Origin: Flavobacteriales bacterium
GTDB taxonomy: Bacteria; Bacteroidota; Bacteroidia; Flavobacteriales; UBA7312
Reading direction: 5' to 3'
DNA: 64,000 nt
Assembly (NCBI GenBank): GCA_965661345.1
Contig: CBFIDK010000001.1
Coordinates: 74,543-138,542 of the forward strand
The translations under genes were made by a program, and so were the position numbers. The notes under the pieces are model-generated. The model was not told the DNA's origin and ran no database searches. It saw only the letters and a program-made list of their open reading frames with translations. Positions 16,944 through 34,223 of the stretch are shown here, piece after piece (the stretch's first letter is position 1; each line of letters opens with the position of its first letter).

Positions 16944-19253
16944 TTACTTTTTTTTGCTTTTTTCGGCTAATTCCAAGCACATTTCTCTAGTTAATGATTT
17001 TGGCTCAACATCCTTAGGAATTTTCACATTAGTCTTATTCTTTCTAGCACCTTCGCCAATTTGAATAAACGGACCATATCGACCGTTTAAAACCTGAACA
17101 AGAGGCTCGCCTTCAAAACGATTAATTGTTTTTTCGGCTTCAGCTTTTCGATGAGCTAAAATAAGCTCAATTGCTCTATTGATTTCGATGGTTAGAGGAT
17201 CATCTCCTTCATCTTTTTTAATAGAAACAAACTTACCTTTAAACCTCAAATACGGACCGAAACGACCAACAGAAGCGACCACCTCTTCTCCTTCGAATTC
17301 ACCAACATTTCTTGGTAATTTGAACAGCTTTAGAGACTGTTCAAGTGTTATAGTGGAAATGCTTTGGTCTGCAAGTAATGAAGCAAATCGAGGTTTCTTT
17401 TCATCGCTTACTTCACCAATTTGAGCCATTGGTCCAAAACGGCCAATTTTTACATATACATTTTCTCCTGTACCTGGCTCTTGTCCAAGAAGTCGCTGAC
17501 CTTTTGCTGATTCTGAATTATCGGCAACCTCATTTACAGTTTTTACAAAACCTTTGTAAAATTGACCAATCATTTCATTCCACACTTTCTCACCTTTAGC
17601 AATGTCATCAAACTCTTTTTCGACATCGGCTGTAAAACCATAATCCATGACATCAGAAAAATTAGCCTTAAGAAAATCTGTTACTACTATACCAATATCC
17701 GTTGGTTTCAACTTTGATTTATCAGAACCTGTTTTTTCTGTTTTGACAGATTCATCTACTTGATTTTCTTTCAACGATAAGAATACAAACGATTTTTTAA
17801 CCCCTTCACTCTGCCCTTTTACGACGTAGCCTCTGTTTTGAACAGTGGTAATTGTTGAAGCATAGGTCGAAGGACGACCAATACCCAATTCTTCAAGTCT
17901 TTTTACCAAACTAGCTTCAGTGTATCGTGACTTTGGCTTGCTGAATCGTTCCGTAGCAGTTATTTCTTTAGAACTAACATCCTCTCCTTGAAATAAGTTT
18001 GGCAGCATGCCATCTTGCTCTTCATTTTCATCATCTGAACTCTCCATGTAAACCTTCAAAAATCCATCGAATTTTATCATCTCGCCCTTTGCAACAAACT
18101 TTTCTTTTCGATTAGAAATAGTAATTTCAGCAGTAGTTCGCTCAAGCTGAGCATCAGCCATCTGTGAAGAAATTGTACGTTTCCAAATAAGATCGTATAA
18201 CCTCATTTGATTACGCTCTCCTTCAAATGATGAATGTGCTAAATTAGTAGGACGGATAGCTTCGTGTGCTTCCTGAGCACCTTTGGATTTAGTTGAATAC
18301 GACCTCACTTTTGAATAGTCAGCTCCGAAGGTAGATTCTATGTATTGAGAAGCCGATTTCACTGCTTCACCAGATAAATTTACACTATCGGTTCTCATAT
18401 AAGTTATTTTACCAGACTCATACAACTTTTGGGCTACGCTCATTGTTTGACCAACTGTAAAACCTAACTTTCTTGACGCTTCTTGTTGTAAAGTAGATGT
18501 AGTAAAAGGTGCTGAAGGTGATTTTTTGGCAGGCTTTTTATTTAAAGAAGAAATAGTAAAATCGGATGAAGCACACGAGTTTAAAAATGCAATGGCTTCT
18601 TCTTTTGTGTCAAATCTTTCAGATAAGTCAGCACTGAATACTTTGCCTTTACTGGATTTAAATTGAGCAGTAACTCTGTATGAAGATACACTTACAAAGT
18701 CAATTATTTCTTTTTCTCTTTCAACGATTAAGCGAACTGCAACGGACTGAACACGACCTGCAGATAAACCGTATTTGACCTTTTTCCAAAGAACTGGCGA
18801 TAACTCAAACCCCACGAGTCTATCTAGTACCCGTCGTGCTTGTTGTGCATTTACCAGATTAACATCAATTTTTCTAGGATTTTCTACCGCTTTATTGATA
18901 GCTGTTTTGGTAATTTCATTGAAAACAATTCGCTTTGTCTTGCTTTCTTCTAGCTCTAATGCTTCTAGCAAATGCCATGCAATAGCTTCTCCTTCACGGT
19001 CCTCATCCGTTGCTAGCCAAACCAGTTCTGACTTTTTTGATAATTTACTTAATTCATCGACTACTTTCTTTTTGTCAGTAGAAACTTCATAAGTAGGCAT
19101 AAAGCCATTTTCAATATCAATAGCCATTCCACCTTTTTTGGGTAAATCCCGTATGTGACCAATGCTTGATTTTACAATAAAGTCTTTACCTAAAAAACCT
19201 TCAATAGTTTTTGCTTTAGCTGGAGACTCGACAATTACTAGATTTTTTGCCAT
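16944..19253 (-). CDS. topA: DNA topoisomerase I
   Basis: 769 aa. It has the Toprim start LVIVESPAKAKTIEGFLG, DEDREGE and the active-site Tyr block ITYMRTDS. Three Cys-less C-terminal repeats are present (GRFGPMAQIG, GRFGPYLRFKG, GRYGPFIQIG). Confidence 0.95.
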   Translation of the reverse strand: MAKNLVIVESPAKAKTIEGFLGKDFIVKSSIGHIRDLPKKGGMAIDIENGFMPTYEVSTDKKKVVDELSKLSKKSELVWLATDEDREGEAIAWHLLEALELEESKTKRIVFNEITKTAINKAVENPRKIDVNLVNAQQARRVLDRLVGFELSPVLWKKVKYGLSAGRVQSVAVRLIVEREKEIIDFVSVSSYRVTAQFKSSKGKVFSADLSERFDTKEEAIAFLNSCASSDFTISSLNKKPAKKSPSAPFTTSTLQQEASRKLGFTVGQTMSVAQKLYESGKITYMRTDSVNLSGEAVKSASQYIESTFGADYSKVRSYSTKSKGAQEAHEAIRPTNLAHSSFEGERNQMRLYDLIWKRTISSQMADAQLERTTAEITISNRKEKFVAKGEMIKFDGFLKVYMESSDDENEEQDGMLPNLFQGEDVSSKEITATERFSKPKSRYTEASLVKRLEELGIGRPSTYASTITTVQNRGYVVKGQSEGVKKSFVFLSLKENQVDESVKTEKTGSDKSKLKPTDIGIVVTDFLKANFSDVMDYGFTADVEKEFDDIAKGEKVWNEMIGQFYKGFVKTVNEVADNSESAKGQRLLGQEPGTGENVYVKIGRFGPMAQIGEVSDEKKPRFASLLADQSISTITLEQSLKLFKLPRNVGEFEGEEVVASVGRFGPYLRFKGKFVSIKKDEGDDPLTIEINRAIELILAHRKAEAEKTINRFEGEPLVQVLNGRYGPFIQIGEGARKNKTNVKIPKDVEPKSLTREMCLELAEKSKKK

Positions 19254-19286
19254 GAGAGAATAAGTTGTTTTCGTTTAAATTAGGTG

Positions 19287-19294
19287 CAAATATA
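19287..19294 (-). promoter_or_regulatory. Putative Bacteroidota sigma-A -7 box (TATATTTG) for topA
   Basis: The minus strand reads TATATTTGCACCTAAT, matching TAnnTTTG about 34 nt upstream of the topA ATG (19253). Confidence 0.45.
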
Positions 19295-19406
19295 TTATTC
19301 CTTTATCCAAACTTCCAAACCCATTATTTTGCAAACTGAGATTATATTATTATATAATATAAGATTTTTAAAAAAAATTAATTTCTGTCAATTTGTCAGT
19401 TTTTAT

Positions 19407-19414
19407 TAATTTTG
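19407..19414 (+). promoter_or_regulatory. Putative Bacteroidota sigma-A -7 box (TAATTTTG) for miaB
   Basis: TAATTTTGCACCTAAAT matches TAnnTTTG 24 nt upstream of the miaB ATG (19438). Confidence 0.45.
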
Positions 19415-19437
19415 CACCTAAATACTGAATAGAATTT

Positions 19438-20883
19438 ATGAACGAAGAAAAAATAATTGACGCTAGCAGACAAGGTGAAGCTTTGTCCATTAAAAGTCAT
19501 TCGACCGATAGCAAAAAGATGTACATCGAAAGCTATGGTTGCCAAATGAACTTTTCTGATAGTGAGATTGTAGCATCAATTCTAACCAAAGAAGGGTTTT
19601 CTACAACACCAAATCTAGAAGATGCTGACATTGTGTTTGTAAATACGTGTTCTATTCGAGAAAAGGCTGAACAAACTGTTCGTAATCGGCTAAAAGTCTA
19701 CAACGCCATCAAAAAAAAGCAAAACCCTAAAATGCTTGTAGGGGTGTTGGGTTGTATGGCTGAACGATTAAAAGAAAAATTTCTTGAAGAAGAAAAATTA
19801 GTAGATATGGTAGTTGGTCCCGATGCCTATCGAGATTTGCCAAATCTAATCGAAGAAGTTAACGACGGCAGAAAAGCAGTTAACGTTATACTTTCAAAAG
19901 AAGAGACTTATGCAGAAATAAGCCCCGTTCGACTGGGCGGAAACGGCATTACTGCCTTTGTTTCAATCACTAGAGGATGCGATAATATGTGTACCTTTTG
20001 TGTTGTGCCATTTACTAGAGGAAGAGAAAGAAGTAGAGACCCAAAAAGCATAGTCCAAGAATGTCAACAACTTGTTACTGATGGCTATAAAGAAGTTACT
20101 CTATTGGGACAGAATGTTGACTCTTACCTGTGGCATGGTGGCGGATTAAAAAAGGATTTCAATAAACTCAGCAAAGAAGAGCAAGAAAAGAGCACAAATT
20201 TCGCTCAACTATTAGCAATGGTTGCTGAAGTAAGCCCAGAATTAAGAGTTCGTTTTTCAACCTCTCACCCAAAAGACATGCAGGACGATGTACTTCATAC
20301 TATTTCTAAGTATGAGAATATTTGCAACTACATTCACTTGCCAGTACAGTCTGGAAACAGCCGAATTCTTGAGTTAATGAATAGAGGCTACAGTCGAGAA
20401 TGGTACCTGAACAGAATAGAATCAATTCGAAAAATAATTCCCGATTGTGCCATTTCTATGGATATCATTTCAGGATTTTGTTCTGAAACAGAGGATGAGC
20501 ATCAAGATACGCTTAGCCTCATGGATATTGTAAAATATGACTTTGGCTATATGTTCAGCTATTCTGAGCGCCCAAATACACAAGCACAAAGAAAACTTGA
20601 AGACGATGTGCCTGAAGACGTTAAAAAAAGACGTTTGCAAGAAATTATAGAAAAACAAATGGGGCATTCACTCATAAGGAATAAAAACCATGTAGGAAAA
20701 ACCCACAAAGTATTAGTCGAAGGTGTTTCTAAAAAATCCAAAGACGAATTGTTTGGAAGAAACACCCAAAACACCGTTATCGTTTTCCCAAAAGAAAACT
20801 ACAAAATTGGTGATTATGTAATGGTAAAAGTTGATGAGTGTACTTCGGCAACACTAAAAGGAACAGCAGTAAATAAAGCATGA
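19438..20883 (+). CDS. miaB: tRNA-2-methylthio-N6-dimethylallyladenosine synthase (radical-SAM methylthiotransferase)
   Basis: 481 aa. It has N-terminal MTTase cysteines ([16 protein letters not shown]), the radical-SAM motif CDNMCTFC and a C-terminal TRAM-like domain. Confidence 0.95.
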
Positions 20884-22031
20884 CATCACATCAGGACATA
20901 AAACAACGTTTTGGCATTGTAGGACAATCTATTAAACTGGAACGCGCAATTGAAATTGCAGTTCAAGTTGCCCCTACTGACATTTCTGTTTTGATTACCG
21001 GTGAAAGTGGTACTGGAAAAGAATCCATGCCTAAAATCATTCACCATAGCAGCCAACGCAAACACAATAACTACATCGCCGTCAACTGTGGCGCTATCCC
21101 TGAAGGAACCATTGACAGTGAACTATTTGGTCATGAAAAAGGTGCTTTTACAGGCGCAAGTGAAAAAAGAAAAGGGTATTTTGAAGTTGCAAATGGTGGA
21201 ACCATATTTCTTGATGAAGTTGGCGAATTACCCTTAAGTACTCAAGTAAGACTATTGCGAGTGCTTGAAAGTGGTGAATTCATGAAAGTTGGCTCTAGCG
21301 AAATTATTAAAGTTGATGTCCGCGTTGTTGCAGCTACAAATGTAAATATTGAGAAAGCCATACAAAACGGTAAATTTAGAGAAGACTTATACTACAGGCT
21401 GAATACGATAAACATCAAAATGCCTCGTCTGAAAGAAAGAAAAGAAGACATTCATCTATTGTTTAGAAAATTTGCCTCCGACTTTGCCGACAAATACAGA
21501 ATTCCAGCCATAAGACTAGATGAAGAAGCTATAGATTTATTGGAAAGCTATTCATGGCCAGGTAACATTAGGCAACTCAAAAATATTTGCGAACAAATTT
21601 CTGCCGTTGAACAAAATAGAAGTGTAAACAAGGAAACATTGAGTCGGTATATTCCAAAAGAAAATGCCACCCCAGTTTTGTTTGGAAAAGGAAACAATGA
21701 AAATGATATTTCAGAAAGAGAAATCCTTTACAAAGTTCTATTTGAGATGAAAAAAGATTTGAACGATTTGAAGCGGGTAACCAAAGAATTGATGAGTGGT
21801 AACATTGTTACACCTGAAGACAGCAAATTGACAGAAAACTTCATTATTCAGCCTAAAGAAGAAGCCTTACAAAGCCCTGTGGAAAAAGAAATATTAACTC
21901 TTCAGGAGCAAGAAAAAATATTAATTGAAGAATCTTTGATAAGGCATCAAGGGAGAAGAAAAGACGCCGCAGATGAACTCGGCATTTCTGAAAGAACACT
22001 TTATCGCAAAATTAAAGAGTATTTACTGTGA
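20880..22031 (+). CDS. Sigma-54-dependent transcriptional activator (bacterial enhancer-binding protein) lacking any N-terminal sensory/receiver domain
   Basis: 383 aa. The Walker A motif GESGTGKE sits at about residue 42. GAFTGA (EKGAFTGA) and Walker B (IFLDEVGEL) are present, with a C-terminal HTH ([19 protein letters not shown]). Its ATG overlaps the miaB stop (ATGA). Confidence 0.85.
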
Positions 22032-22528
22032 GAAATTTAAAAACATATTCAGTATTACTAGCTCTAATTATTAGTTCATGCGGTGTTTACACCTTTTCAG
22101 GCTCATCTATTTCCTCAGAAGTAAAGACCGTTAACATTCAATTTTTTGAAAATAAAACATCTTTATCACCATCAAATTTATCGAATAACTTCACTGAAGC
22201 ACTCAAAGATAAATTATCATCTGAAACGAACCTCAGCCCCGTATCAACCGATGGAGATTTGACATACACGGGTTATATTTCGAATTACGACATTAAACCC
22301 ATTGCCATACAGGCTGACGAAACTGCGGCTAAAAACAGATTAACCATTTCAGTAAAAGTCACCTTCACCAATAAGCTGCAAGAAGAATATAATTTTGACA
22401 AAACATTTAGCCGATACGCCGACTACGACAGTGGAGAAGATTTAAAATCCATTGAAGACCGACTGAATGAAGAAATTACCGAACAATTGATCGATAATAT
22501 TTTTAACGAATCTATTTCAAATTGGTAG
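22028..22528 (+). CDS. lptE: LPS-assembly lipoprotein LptE
   Basis: 166 aa with a GTG start overlapping the EBP stop (GTGA). It has a lipobox (LALIISSC) and LptE-like blocks (TVNIQFFENKT, GDLTYTGYISNYDIKP). This position after miaB/EBP is one I recall as common in Bacteroidota. Confidence 0.7.
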   Translation: MRNLKTYSVLLALIISSCGVYTFSGSSISSEVKTVNIQFFENKTSLSPSNLSNNFTEALKDKLSSETNLSPVSTDGDLTYTGYISNYDIKPIAIQADETAAKNRLTISVKVTFTNKLQEEYNFDKTFSRYADYDSGEDLKSIEDRLNEEITEQLIDNIFNESISNW

Positions 22529-23241
22529 AATTAAAAGACAAATATTCAAAATGGATTCAGCAGCCACACTCTTTAACAAGAGAGGATGCTGACACGTTAA
22601 AGGAATTAGTCGACAACTACCCCTTTTGTCAAACTAGTCGATTGCTTTACATCAAAAGTTTACAGAATATAAATAGCATACACTTCAATCAGACTTTAAA
22701 AGTCACCGCCGCACACGCTGCAGACAGACATCAACTTTTTTATTTACTTACGGACAAGAAAGCAATTGTTCAGAAAGATGAACAAAAGAAATCCACCAAA
22801 GTAGAAGTAAAAAAGGCTAATGAGGTAAAAGAAGAATCAATAAAAGAGTCTTTAAATATCGGGCAACCCATAGCATTCGAAAAAGAAGAAACTCACTCTT
22901 TCAGTCAATGGTTAAAACTAAGTCAAGCAAAACCAATTGAAAGAAAAAAAGAACAAAATAACTTACAGAAAAAAGTTAGTTTAATTGAAGACTTTATTGC
23001 AAATAGAGAAAGAACACCGCAAAAAAAGACCTTTTATTCGGCAACAAATCAAGCCAAAAAAAGCGAGACATTTGAATTTGATATTGTTACCGAAACTCTT
23101 GCTAAAGTATATCTAGAACAAGAACATTACGAAAAAGCGAAAGAAGCATATCGACAACTTTGTTTGAAATATCCCCAAAAAAGTTCTTTATTTGCATCCC
23201 AAATTGAATTAATCGATCAGTTAATTGATCAAAACAATTAA
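22522..23241 (+). CDS. Hypothetical cytoplasmic protein with a Lys/Glu-rich centre and a C-terminal TPR-like helix pair
   Basis: 239 aa with a TTG start overlapping the lptE stop by 7 nt. There is no signal peptide. The C-terminus reads LAKVYLEQEHYEKAKEAYRQLCLKYPQ. Confidence 0.5.
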   Translation: MVELKDKYSKWIQQPHSLTREDADTLKELVDNYPFCQTSRLLYIKSLQNINSIHFNQTLKVTAAHAADRHQLFYLLTDKKAIVQKDEQKKSTKVEVKKANEVKEESIKESLNIGQPIAFEKEETHSFSQWLKLSQAKPIERKKEQNNLQKKVSLIEDFIANRERTPQKKTFYSATNQAKKSETFEFDIVTETLAKVYLEQEHYEKAKEAYRQLCLKYPQKSSLFASQIELIDQLIDQNN

Positions 23242-23250
23242 AAATAAGTT

Positions 23251-23586
23251 ATGTACACTATATTTTCAGTTCTAATCATCATCACTTGTATCCTACTTCT
23301 TTTAGTAGTATTAGTTCAGAACCCTAAAGGCGGTGGCCTTTCTGCAACATTTGGTGGTGGAAATCAGGTAATGGGTGTCAAAAAAACAGCTGACTTTTTG
23401 GAAAAAGCAACATGGTATTTAGCCATTGCTCTATTGTTCTTTTCACTAATGTCTAACTTAAGTATTTCTTCTAAAGTTGACGAAAACGGACAAAACGAAT
23501 CCATTATTCAACAGCAATTAGACGAAACTCCAATACCAACGCAAAGTTTACCAGCGCTTCCAATTCAAGAAGCACCTGCCGAGTAA
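23251..23586 (+). CDS. secG: Preprotein translocase subunit SecG
   Basis: 111 aa with two TM helices flanking a Gly-rich loop (NPKGGGLSATFGGGNQVMG). Confidence 0.8.
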   Translation: MYTIFSVLIIITCILLLLVVLVQNPKGGGLSATFGGGNQVMGVKKTADFLEKATWYLAIALLFFSLMSNLSISSKVDENGQNESIIQQQLDETPIPTQSLPALPIQEAPAE

Positions 23587-23645
23587 GTTTATAACTTCTC
23601 TGACATAATTTCAAGCTGGCTGAAAAAAAGTCATCAATTTTATTA

Positions 23646-23671
23646 AGTGTGTCCTCGTGGCACACTTTTTG
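23646..23671 (+). terminator. Rho-independent terminator-like hairpin after secG
   Basis: AGTGTGTC-CTCGT-GGCACACT followed by TTTTT. The hairpin overlaps the sigma-54 -24 element. Confidence 0.55.
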
Positions 23672-23673
23672 CT
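23658..23673 (+). promoter_or_regulatory. Sigma-54 (RpoN) -24/-12 promoter upstream of groES
   Basis: TGGCAC-ACTTT-TTGCT is an exact match to the core TGGCAC-N5-TTGCW. GG is at 23659-60 and GC at 23671-72, 40 nt upstream of the groES ATG. Confidence 0.6.
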
Positions 23674-23712
23674 ATAAACTAAGCACAAACATTAACAAAT
23701 AAATTTAATCTT

Positions 23713-25627
<1,915 letters not shown>

Positions 25628-25636
25628 TCAATTTAA

Positions 25637-25663
25637 AAAAACCCCAAAATTTTTGGGGTTTTT
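25637..25663. terminator. Rho-independent terminator after groEL
   Basis: Palindrome AAAAACCCCAAAA-T-TTTTGGGGTTTTT located 10 nt after the groEL stop. Confidence 0.7.
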
Positions 25664-25703
25664 AATTGCTTTTTTCATAGCTTAGCAAGTCTTTTGAAAA
25701 GCC

Positions 25704-26522
25704 ATGATCATGAACTCAAAAATTACAAAGCTATTTACAGTTTTCCTTTTTTTGTATAGCTATACTATCAAATCCCAAACAGCTAACCAACTAATTCGCA
25801 TCAATAACGTAGCCGATAACAACGCTATGAACGCCATTGCTTCACCAAACGAAGGAAGCTTGGTTTACGTTAGTTCTTCTGATAATGTCTATTATTTTGG
25901 AAACGGTACATGGAACTTAATTGGAGGATCAGGCTCAACAACAGACACCAATGACGATGCGTGGGGAGTGACAGGTGAAGATTTAGTTTCAGACATAAAC
26001 AGAACAGGAAAAGTAACCATTGGTCAATCTGGAAACACAACGATTAAATTAGATGTAAATGGACAAACAATTGTCCGTAATTTACCCAATGATTTAAGCG
26101 GTGGAAAAGGAGTTATTAAATCTGACGATGGAGAATTGCGTTCAGACACCTATACCTCGCATGTTCATGGTGGTATTGTTAGCTATTCTTGGAAAAACCT
26201 TTGCCACACAAAGAAAGGCGTAGTAGTAACTGGCCATTATAAATCAGATAACAATTGTTCTAATGGACACTTTCAATTTAGGTTTCATATATGGGTAACA
26301 CCACCTTCAGTTAGTTTTGTCTATCCGCCATACGTACTAGTATATAATGACGGAAATGCTTCATTTACTTATGATTTAAACTCAACTATTCTTACTGTAA
26401 CGGCACCAACTTACTGTGGTAGTTACTCAACCCAATTCAGATTATTTAACAATAATTTACAAATGAAGCAAGGGAGTTCTGCCAGCCCACTTGAAATGGA
26501 TATAAGAGTCGAAGGCTATTAA
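25704..26522 (+). CDS. Secreted hypothetical protein, paralogue A (conserved N-module, variable Cys-containing C-module)
   Basis: 272 aa with a signal peptide (cleavage IKS|Q). The N-module reads QLIRINNVADNNAMNAIASPNEGSLVYV...TDTNDDAWGVTGED...RTGKVTIG...KLDVNGQTIVRNLP. The protein ends in IRVEGY. Confidence 0.7.
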   Translation: MIMNSKITKLFTVFLFLYSYTIKSQTANQLIRINNVADNNAMNAIASPNEGSLVYVSSSDNVYYFGNGTWNLIGGSGSTTDTNDDAWGVTGEDLVSDINRTGKVTIGQSGNTTIKLDVNGQTIVRNLPNDLSGGKGVIKSDDGELRSDTYTSHVHGGIVSYSWKNLCHTKKGVVVTGHYKSDNNCSNGHFQFRFHIWVTPPSVSFVYPPYVLVYNDGNASFTYDLNSTILTVTAPTYCGSYSTQFRLFNNNLQMKQGSSASPLEMDIRVEGY

Positions 26523-26539: not shown

Positions 26540-27352
26540 ATGAAAAAAATATCTCTTCTAATATTATTTAGCTTTTTGATAAGCATCTATGCTATGGCAC
26601 AAAATGCTAGTCAACTTATCCGTCTGAATAATGTAGCCGATAACAATGTCATGAATGCCATTTCATCGCCCAATGAGGGTAGTTTGGTTTATGTCATCTC
26701 AACAAATAACATCTACTATTACGGAAATGGCACTTGGAACTTAATTGGAGGCTCTGGAGCCATAACCGATACTAATGACGATGCCTGGGGAGTAACTGGA
26801 GAAGACATCGCTTCGGACATTAGCAGAACAGGAAAAGTAACCATTGGTCAGGCTGGAAGCACAACTGTTAAATTAGACGTTAATGGCAGGACAATTGTAC
26901 GAAATTTACCAATTGACGAAGGTATAAATGCAAAGTCACTTCTTCATTCTACCAATGGGGAATTACGATCAGACAAATATACTGTTCCGCACTCCTATAT
27001 ATTATTACTAACCTCAGACTGGCAAGATCTTTGCTTTGCAAAAAATGGAGCTACAGTAACTGGATTTTATACAAGTAATAGCTATTGTTCCGAAGGGCAT
27101 TTTCAATTTAAATATCAAAATGGACAATCTGTACCATTCTTCATGGTATATCACCTAGAAGGTCCATTTCCTTCCCCATTCACCTATGACTCATCAACGG
27201 GTATTTATACTTCTACATCTTCCTGTGGTCCAGATTATGCCGCACCAGCTACGACTCAGTTTAGAGTAGTTAACGATATCTTACAAGTACGAAACGCAGT
27301 TCCTTCATCTCCAATGTTGCATTTATTCTATATTAGAGTTGAAGGGTATTAA
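26540..27352 (+). CDS. Secreted hypothetical protein, paralogue B
   Basis: 270 aa with signal peptide MKKISLLILFSFLISIYAMA|Q. By hand alignment it is about 80% identical to paralogue A over the first ~105 mature residues and about one third identical afterwards. Confidence 0.7.
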   Translation: MKKISLLILFSFLISIYAMAQNASQLIRLNNVADNNVMNAISSPNEGSLVYVISTNNIYYYGNGTWNLIGGSGAITDTNDDAWGVTGEDIASDISRTGKVTIGQAGSTTVKLDVNGRTIVRNLPIDEGINAKSLLHSTNGELRSDKYTVPHSYILLLTSDWQDLCFAKNGATVTGFYTSNSYCSEGHFQFKYQNGQSVPFFMVYHLEGPFPSPFTYDSSTGIYTSTSSCGPDYAAPATTQFRVVNDILQVRNAVPSSPMLHLFYIRVEGY

Positions 27353-33699: not shown

Positions 33700-34223
33700 T
33701 GAAATACTTTTTTATACTTTTTTTAGCTACAATGATTGGCTGTAGCAACTCCCATTTTCAAGCAGAAAAGGAAACAATCGACGAATTAATCACTCAATAC
33801 GATAGCTTGTTAAATGCAATTAATAGCGTAGATATAAATTCGGCAAAACCTAACTTGCAGAAATACAATGCATCATTAGAATACTCTAAGACACAACTAA
33901 GTACGGAGAAAAAACCCAGTTTGAAGACCATGAATTTCATGAACGATATGAAATTGATGAAACGTCAATTCAAAAATGCCTCAAAGACAAAAAATAATCT
34001 AATTTCTAATTCCGTTAGAAATCAAGAGCAATTGGATAATTTAATAACCGACATAGAAAATCGTATTTTTGAAAAAGACGAACTTGAGCTTATTCTAAGC
34101 AGAGAAAAGCAGGCTTTTAAAGAGCTATCAGAATCATTGATGAATTTTGAAAAATCCTTTAAAAATGCAGAGTCTCGTTTTGACAGTCTTTATGTGCTAT
34201 CAAAAACCTTCCAATACAACTAA
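33699..34223 (+). CDS. Hypothetical lipoprotein (helical, Lys/Asn-rich)
   Basis: 174 aa with lipobox MKYFFILFLATMIGC. Its ATG overlaps the serS stop (TAATG). Confidence 0.5.
   Translation: MKYFFILFLATMIGCSNSHFQAEKETIDELITQYDSLLNAINSVDINSAKPNLQKYNASLEYSKTQLSTEKKPSLKTMNFMNDMKLMKRQFKNASKTKNNLISNSVRNQEQLDNLITDIENRIFEKDELELILSREKQAFKELSESLMNFEKSFKNAESRFDSLYVLSKTFQYN

Follow-up and report, generated by a model that had tools for sequence, protein, structure and literature searches.

A conserved sigma-54 promoter of groES-groEL in a Flavobacteriales genome and a candidate activator encoded in the same gene string

What drives transcription of the chaperonin operon groES-groEL in a member of the Bacteroidota, and which protein activates it? 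The question is raised by a 64,000-nucleotide stretch of the genome of an uncultured Flavobacteriales bacterium (assembly GCA_965661345.1, contig CBFIDK010000001.1, positions 74,543 to 138,542 of the forward strand; hereafter the window, with positions counted from its first letter). A preliminary description of this DNA had placed an exact sigma-54 (-24/-12) promoter directly before groES and had noted the gene for a sigma-54 activator, or enhancer-binding protein (EBP), 1.6 kb upstream in the same gene string. The best explanation, and one that we consider likely, is that groESL has a sigma-54 promoter that is most probably driven by the upstream EBP through palindromes lying in helical phase with it.

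The sigma-54 promoter of groES-groEL

The motif TGGCACACTTTTTGCT (TGGCAC-ACTTT-TTGCT) lies on the plus strand at 23658-23673, with 39 nt separating its end from the groES ATG at 23713, and its GG (23659-60) and GC (23671-72) are exactly 10 bp apart, the canonical sigma-54 spacing. The promoter features are as follows:

23658..23673, plus strand: sigma-54 promoter core, with the -24 box TGGCAC at 23658-63 and the -12 box TTGC at 23669-72
about 23684-23685, plus strand: predicted groES transcription start site (TSS), its geometry transferred from the groS TSS 867211 of Flavobacterium psychrophilum

The same geometry predicts a leader of about 28 nt and agrees with the start near 23683-23685 that had been proposed. 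The exact motif TGGCAC-N5-TTGCW, which the preliminary description had located by eye and had found nowhere else, is indeed present before groES and occurs only once when both strands of the window are scanned. Its estimate that a chance match in the window has a probability of a few percent was also about right: dinucleotide-preserving shuffles hold a mean of 0.08 exact matches, with at least one match in 8 of 100. By arithmetic from these shuffles, the expectation falls to about 6e-5 when only the 100 nt suited to a promoter of one particular gene are considered, in line with its further statement that a match at such a distance would be much rarer. A relaxed motif representative of the phylum, TGGCAY-N7-G[ACT], has 11 sites in the window, only one of which, at 23658, is intergenic and correctly oriented before a gene. 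When up to two mismatches are permitted there are 31 matches in the window against 24 expected, and these looser matches are noise. Further sigma-54 promoters in the window were considered and rejected, as the one-mismatch matches at 27020, 29630, 31255, and 38311 and the remaining relaxed matches all fall within open reading frames (ORFs).

Other control elements were sought in the same region. No TAnnTTTG sigma-A -7 box was found in 23400-23712, where the sole near match (TAAATTTA at 23700) is too near the ATG, and no controlling inverted repeat of chaperone expression (CIRCE; TTAGCACTC-N9-GAGTGCTAA) was found upstream of groES, the best match in the window having five mismatches, at 33787; the scans agree with the preliminary description on both counts. 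A reading of 23587-23712 revealed no CCCCAT-type sigma-32-like -10 element, and an Rfam scan of 19000-26000 for a thermometer or leader RNA returned only sub-threshold noise, at the groEL terminator. A scan of the window for Escherichia coli-type sigma-70 promoters (18 found, 18.8 expected) is uninformative here.

The evidence that carries the promoter assignment is comparative. A GroES query against one genome per species yielded 80 loci (L001-L080; 81 with the window), spanning Flavobacteriales, Cytophagales, Chitinophagales, Sphingobacteriales, and Bacteroidales. TGGCA[CT] is present upstream of groES in all 80 species, irrespective of whether the preceding gene is secG or another, at 42-144 nt before the start (median 68; in the window, the T of TGGCAC precedes the ATG by 55 nt). 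When the loci are anchored on TGGCA alone, the G of the -12 TTGC stands at +13, the canonical spacing, in 79 of 81. In these loci, TGGCAY-N7-G[CA] has a background frequency of 0.087 per kb per strand, which corresponds to about one chance match over all 80 promoter regions. The universal conservation, the G at +13, and the low background together indicate that the motif tracks groES and not secG and that it is under strong selection. On this comparative evidence, we take 23658-23673 to be a genuine sigma-54 promoter of groES-groEL, conserved across the phylum Bacteroidota. The -12 box of the Bacteroidota groES promoters is degenerate (tTG[A/C]), with A after the G commoner than C, and the proteobacterial consensus is matched exactly in the window and in none of the 80 other loci. 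Scans that demand TTGC would overlook most groES promoters of this phylum.

Promoters of this kind have been published, and on this point the preliminary description, which was aware of no characterization of such a circuit in Bacteroidota, must be corrected. Genome-wide mapping of 5' ends in F. psychrophilum OSU THCO2-90 (Guérin et al., 2021, ISME Commun; PMC9723704) identified a motif, SM4, that equals the sigma-54 -24/-12 consensus, and groES-groEL, lon, dnaK, grpE-dnaJ, htpG, skp, and clpB each have an SM4 promoter with a mapped TSS. In the chaperone co-expression cluster B254, five of seven transcription units start at SM4 promoters (PMC9723704). The groS TSS at 867211 has an SM4 probability of 1, a 30-nt leader, and the sequence AAAaaatgtcagttttaaatccTTGGCATAATTTCTGAAAAGacaataac (PMC9723704, Table S2), and the locus tags of the corresponding region are THC0290_0734 (miaB), 0733 (EBP), 0732 (LptE), 0730 (secG), 0729 (groS), and 0728 (groL). 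The earlier proposal that sigma-54 controls groESL is upheld by the conservation of the motif and by this mapped orthologous TSS. A survey with position-specific scoring matrices (PLoS One, 2025; PMC12316311) found sigma-54 predictions significantly enriched at GroEL, GroES, GrpE, DnaJ, DnaK, and IbpA in Bacteroidota, with the enrichment at chaperone genes peaking in Flavobacteriia; being a matrix survey only, it proposes no activator or activator site for the chaperone regulon. It also calls the GroES of Bacteroides thetaiotaomicron sigma-54-dependent by way of its reference 80, a Blattabacterium genome paper, and that statement is not relied on here. Two B. thetaiotaomicron transcriptome papers (PMC7366714, PMC10994844) make no mention of sigma-54 or groES promoters, and Bacteroidetes, groES, miaB, and secG are all absent from the main text of Francke et al. 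(2011; PMC3162934). The sigma-54 promoter of groESL in flavobacteria is already in the literature, and the window provides one more, unusually canonical, example.

A phased palindrome and its candidate activator

Upstream of the promoter core, the groES loci share a second element. Each of the pentamers TGTCA and TGACA turns up in 47 of the 81 loci within 55 nt upstream of the -24 box, where 3.7 would be expected, and they combine into a 13-bp palindrome, (C)TGACAnnnTGTCA(G), whose half-site spacer is N3 by position counts. With up to two mismatches, the palindrome is found between -110 and -10 in 76 of 81 loci (positions of palindrome centers are given relative to the T of TGGCA), against a background of 0.046 per 100 nt. 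The centers form a ladder at -19, -30, -40, -51, -61, -72, -82, and -93. The best period is 10.5-10.6 bp (R = 0.88), with Rayleigh p values of about 5e-32 for all centers and about 1e-21 when the proximal class is left out, both of which overstate independence, as the 80 loci come from related species. The pattern is nonetheless evident on inspection. Two such palindromes precede the promoter in the window:

23601..23613, no strand assigned: candidate upstream activator site 1, TGACATAATTTCA, with one mismatch, centered at -51, on the ladder
23621..23633, no strand assigned: candidate upstream activator site 2, TGAAAAAAAGTCA, with two mismatches, centered at -31, at ladder position -30/-31

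The composite of palindrome and promoter is also found before other genes. A metagenome collection was scanned for GACANNNTGTCA-N11-14-TGGCAY-N7-G, which returned 120 stretches (L081-L200), and 95 of these have a downstream ORF of at least 60 aa that starts within 260 nt. Classical heat-shock chaperones make up over half of the 95, with the following Pfam assignments:

Cpn10: 17 ORFs
HSP70: 15 ORFs
HSP90 / HATPase (HtpG): 13 ORFs
HSP20: 7 ORFs

Most of the remaining hits come from GC-rich contigs and often lack a proper -12 box; they look like chance matches. Where dnaK, htpG, and other metagenome promoters have a second palindrome, it is mostly on the same ladder. In F. psychrophilum, the mapped SM4 promoters of groS and clpB have TGTC(A/C) at -17, and those of remF and THC0290_0297, which belong to another co-expression cluster, do not; the palindrome thus sets apart the chaperone subset of sigma-54 promoters. 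As part of our best explanation, and with the same good degree of confidence, the module of palindrome and sigma-54 promoter heads groES, dnaK, htpG, and hsp20 and defines a heat-shock or proteostasis regulon of the phylum. None of dnaK, htpG, or lon lies within the window.

The module was also seen before TPR- and UVR-domain proteins of about 620 aa (L094, L152, L170), Bax1-I/YccA-like proteins (L119, L190), patatin-like proteins (L102, L143), a trigger-factor-like protein (L178), a thioredoxin (L122), and a DnaJ-like protein (L182), all of which are possible further members of the regulon.

The candidate for the protein that binds the palindrome is encoded in the window itself. The gene 1.6 kb upstream of the promoter does encode an EBP, as the preliminary description had it, and it lies in an operon whose own promoter region contains the palindrome:

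20880..22031, plus strand: sensor-less sigma-54 EBP, Pfam Sigma54_activat (6e-70), AAA_lid_14, and HTH_8
19385..19399, no strand assigned: candidate autoregulatory operator CTGTCAATTTGTCAG upstream of miaB, with one mismatch to TGACAnnnTGTCA
19407..19414, plus strand: sigma-A -7 box TAATTTTG (TAnnTTTG) of the miaB-EBP operon, starting 21 nt after the palindrome start, with a predicted TSS near 19420

The EBP has its GAFTGA motif at 21141 and begins directly with the AAA+ domain, which is followed by the lid, a linker, and the HTH_8 domain; 39 of 43 orthologues start within four residues of the window protein, from which it follows that the family is without a receiver or sensor domain. The only end-to-end alignment is with a PspF model (TIGR02974; 269.5 bits, cut-off 443.55), and the score against NF008622 (PspF) is 217.7 bits, with a cut-off of 529. 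Judged by these scores, the EBP is PspF-like in outline and not a member or orthologue of PspF. The closest solved AAA+ cores are those of NtrC, FleQ, NtrC1, ZraR, and PspF. No second EBP is present in the 64-kb window.

A segment of the linker (about residues 281-300) is conserved in 41 aligned sequences, while the rest of the linker is variable. This segment may be a regulatory or partner-binding helix and the entry point of the stress signal.

The palindrome occurs upstream of miaB in all 24 loci in which the miaB start and its upstream DNA could be checked (e.g., L013, L018, L029, and L037), and in these a TAnnTTTG box begins 21-34 nt after the start of the palindrome. Just upstream of the sigma-A TSSs mapped for miaB in F. 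psychrophilum (872408 and 872418), the sequence ACATCTTGTCAGA stands at the 5' edge of the -50..+10 interval. The palindrome is assigned to the EBP because the site is common to the regulon and to the promoter of the regulator's own operon, a signature of autoregulation. From this, we infer that the sensor-less EBP at 20880-22031 is an autoregulated heat-shock activator that binds the palindrome. The suggestion that the EBP is linked to the groES promoter gains indirect support from this palindrome, which the groES and miaB-EBP promoters have in common.

The circuit would then operate as follows. Sigma-54 RNA polymerase would sit on 23658-73 as a closed complex, and the helix-turn-helix (HTH) domain of the EBP would occupy the palindromes at 23601-13 and 23621-33, on the same helix face as the -24 box. 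There the EBP would contact sigma-54 and use ATP to open the promoter, and groESL mRNA would start near 23684-23685 only once the complex had been remodelled. Bound at the palindrome at 19386-98, the EBP would also modulate its own sigma-A promoter, probably as a repressor by analogy with PspF. The secG terminator would reuse the -24 box as its 3' arm, and as one acts at the RNA level and the other at the DNA level, the two need not interfere. For the stress input to an EBP without a sensor, the model that suggests itself is titration of an inhibitor or of chaperones. In this scheme, the palindrome binder, the sign of autoregulation, the terminator function, and the stress signal are all parts that we infer.

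A broader proposal is offered more tentatively, as a real possibility that stops somewhat short of being probable: the miaB-linked sensor-less EBP would be the master heat-shock activator of the whole phylum, acting from a palindrome placed an integral number of helical turns, about 20-95 bp, upstream of the -24 box at groES, dnaK, htpG, hsp20, and other genes, and autoregulated through the same palindrome. No description of the palindrome, its phasing, the regulon, the autoregulatory site, or the assignment of the activator was found in the F. psychrophilum study, in the 2025 survey, or elsewhere in the literature searched, the coverage of which was incomplete.

Competing readings of the locus

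One reading open to an alternative concerns the hairpin that overlaps the promoter, which the preliminary description had taken for the secG terminator:

23645..23667, plus strand: hairpin AAGTGTGTC-CTCGT-GGCACACTT followed by a T-run, terminator-like, its 3' arm coinciding with the -24 box

The hairpin begins 59 nt past the secG stop and has a 9-bp stem with four GC pairs and a 5-nt loop, followed by UUUGCU. It folds at -11.4 kcal/mol (z = -4.3), with none of 200 shuffles as stable. Only three of the 81 loci have an uninterrupted hairpin, of 6 bp or more, that takes the -24 box into its 3' arm: the window; L001, its closest relative, whose GroES is 98% identical; and one unrelated locus. L001 has a single difference in the 5' arm, T.G to C-G, which extends the stem to 10 bp (folding at -14.3 kcal/mol, z = -5.4) and suggests that the structure is maintained in this lineage. 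Given its place just after the secG stop and the T-run that follows, the hairpin is probably the intrinsic terminator of secG. It could instead be an incidental inverted repeat or a DNA-level modulator of sigma-54 binding, since its 3' arm is constrained by the promoter in any case and its maintenance is supported by two related sequences only; set against a fold far better than that of shuffled sequences, the stem-lengthening change in L001, and the position about 60 nt past secG with a T-run next, we consider this alternative doubtful. The overlap described earlier is real and the hairpin is stable, but the arrangement is confined to those three loci, and the terminator role is a plausible one. 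The same count led us to reject the hairpin as a conserved part of the promoter mechanism, and we regard the overlap as a lineage-specific local quirk, an economy of sequence. In the window, the hairpin takes up the common -19 position of the palindrome.

A second alternative retains the sigma-54 promoter and has the palindrome bound by another protein, such as a heat-shock repressor or co-activator encoded elsewhere, with the EBP acting from other sites or from solution. F. psychrophilum has one sigma-54 and three EBPs, none of which was assigned to the chaperone cluster by the authors (PMC9723704), and upstream of the EBP no palindrome was found in four of the five Bacteroidales loci that lack a preceding miaB. 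Conservation of the HTH was tried and rejected as evidence for binding of the palindrome by the EBP, as the conserved sequence is one that many EBPs share, a general trait of the HTH_8 family, and not diagnostic. What makes a different binder rather unlikely is the palindrome at the EBP's own operon promoter in 24 of 24 loci, a classic signature of autoregulation; in addition, strict helical phasing over about eight turns fits an activator facing sigma-54 and not an occluding repressor, and in about half of the loci, from different classes, the EBP gene and groESL stand in synteny.

The preferred reading, that the EBP drives the sigma-54 promoter through the palindromes, has to be weighed against the three unassigned EBPs of F. 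psychrophilum and the Bacteroidales loci just given, and several further observations also speak against it. Some palindromes include TTTG, the sigma-A -33 motif, which could inflate the matches at miaB promoters, and the relatedness of the species tempers the phasing statistics. The palindromes in the window are imperfect (one and two mismatches), and the commonest site, at -19, is missing. A candidate activator site centered no more than about 46-78 nt from the TSS is nearer than classical enhancers. Finally, no RpoN box is found within the 64-kb window and the presence of rpoN is assumed; it is presumably encoded elsewhere in the host genome, given the intact EBP and the single sigma-54 of F. 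psychrophilum.

Transcription of groESL mainly by read-through from secG, or from an unrecognized sigma-A promoter, with the sigma-54 site auxiliary or silent, appears very improbable. The U-tract of the hairpin is short and interrupted (UUUUUGCU), and termination could leak, but the sigma-A -7 box is lacking from 23400-23712, and the motif is conserved before groES without exception, which implies that it is in use. The groS TSS recorded at this position in F. psychrophilum is the sigma-54 one, and the expression signal there falls from about 12-13 in secG to about 8-9 in the secG 3' region before rising to about 13-14 in groS (PMC9723704). That the motif is a chance match without function can be dismissed: exact matches do turn up somewhere in 8 of 100 window shuffles, but all 80 other species have the motif at the same position, and a TSS has been mapped for the orthologue.

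Neighboring genes and known systems

The promoter and the EBP belong to a string of seven genes on the plus strand, whose other members and closing hairpin are listed here:

19438..20883, plus strand: miaB (tRNA methylthiotransferase), first of the string, Pfam UPF0004, Radical_SAM, and TRAM
22028..22528, plus strand: LptE-like lipoprotein, Pfam LptE (5.7e-17)
22522..23241, plus strand: conserved weak-TPR protein between lptE and secG, from Pfam and synteny, with no NCBIfam match
23251..23586, plus strand: secG, Pfam SecG (3.2e-20)
23713..23982, plus strand: groES, Pfam Cpn10 (1.6e-35)
23996..25627, plus strand: groEL, from ORF translation and tblastn synteny
25637..25663, plus strand: strong terminator-like hairpin closing the groESL operon, a 12-bp stem followed by a T-run

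The string miaB-EBP-lptE-TPR-secG-groES-groEL is complete in about half of the 80 loci, and elsewhere the neighbors of groES differ. The seven-gene order is retained in Flavobacteriales, Cytophagales, Sphingobacteriales, and some Bacteroidales, the latter without miaB. It joins a lipopolysaccharide-assembly gene, a translocon subunit, and the chaperonin to an activator. Directly downstream of groEL are two tandem paralogous ORFs, 25704-26522 (272 aa) and 26540-27352 (270 aa), with signal-peptide-like N-termini and long N-terminal stretches in common (e.g., LIRxNNVADNN and TDTNDDAWGVTGED).

The Bacteroidota are a major phylum of gut, soil, and ocean, and their heat-shock control is unlike the textbook models of sigma-32 and HrcA. 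What is added here is a testable wiring diagram, composed of an operator sequence, a strict face-of-helix rule, a sensor-less candidate activator, and an autoregulatory site. The composite motif is useful for annotating the stress regulons of uncultured Bacteroidota, and two questions, the identity of the EBP in charge of the regulon and the way in which a protein without a sensor domain detects proteotoxic stress, are now approachable in tractable species such as F. johnsoniae, F. psychrophilum, or B. thetaiotaomicron.

Among known systems, a close one is the SM4 promoter of groES-groEL in F. psychrophilum. This species has the same gene order (miaB, EBP, LptE, one further gene, secG, groES, groEL), a TGGCA-type -24 box and a -12 TG before groES, a similar leader (30 nt, against about 28 nt predicted here), and an upstream TGTCAG half-site. 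The two differ in the promoter core, which is TGGCAC-N5-TTGC in the window and TGGCAT-N5-CTGA in F. psychrophilum, and in the palindromes, which stand at -31 and -51 in the window instead of at -19. The hairpin of the window overlaps the -24 box, but the secG 3' region of F. psychrophilum stops about 63 nt short of the groS TSS.

Compared with the sigma-32 and HrcA/CIRCE systems, the targets are the same (groESL, dnaK, htpG, and small heat-shock proteins), and a cis element again extends across the regulon. The window has neither CIRCE nor a CCCCAT-type -10, and control would operate through sigma-54 and activation by an ATPase, in contrast to a sigma-70-family factor or the release of a repressor.

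The PspF/psp system of E. coli offers a parallel for the activator. In both cases the EBP consists only of an AAA+ domain and a C-terminal HTH and is tied to a stress regulon, and the candidate site at its own sigma-70-type promoter suggests autoregulation, as PspF autoregulates. Unlike the psp system, the gene string contains no evident pspA-like partner, its targets would be cytoplasmic chaperones and not envelope proteins, and the candidate sites (centers about -46 to -120 from the TSS) are much closer to the promoter than the PspF enhancer.

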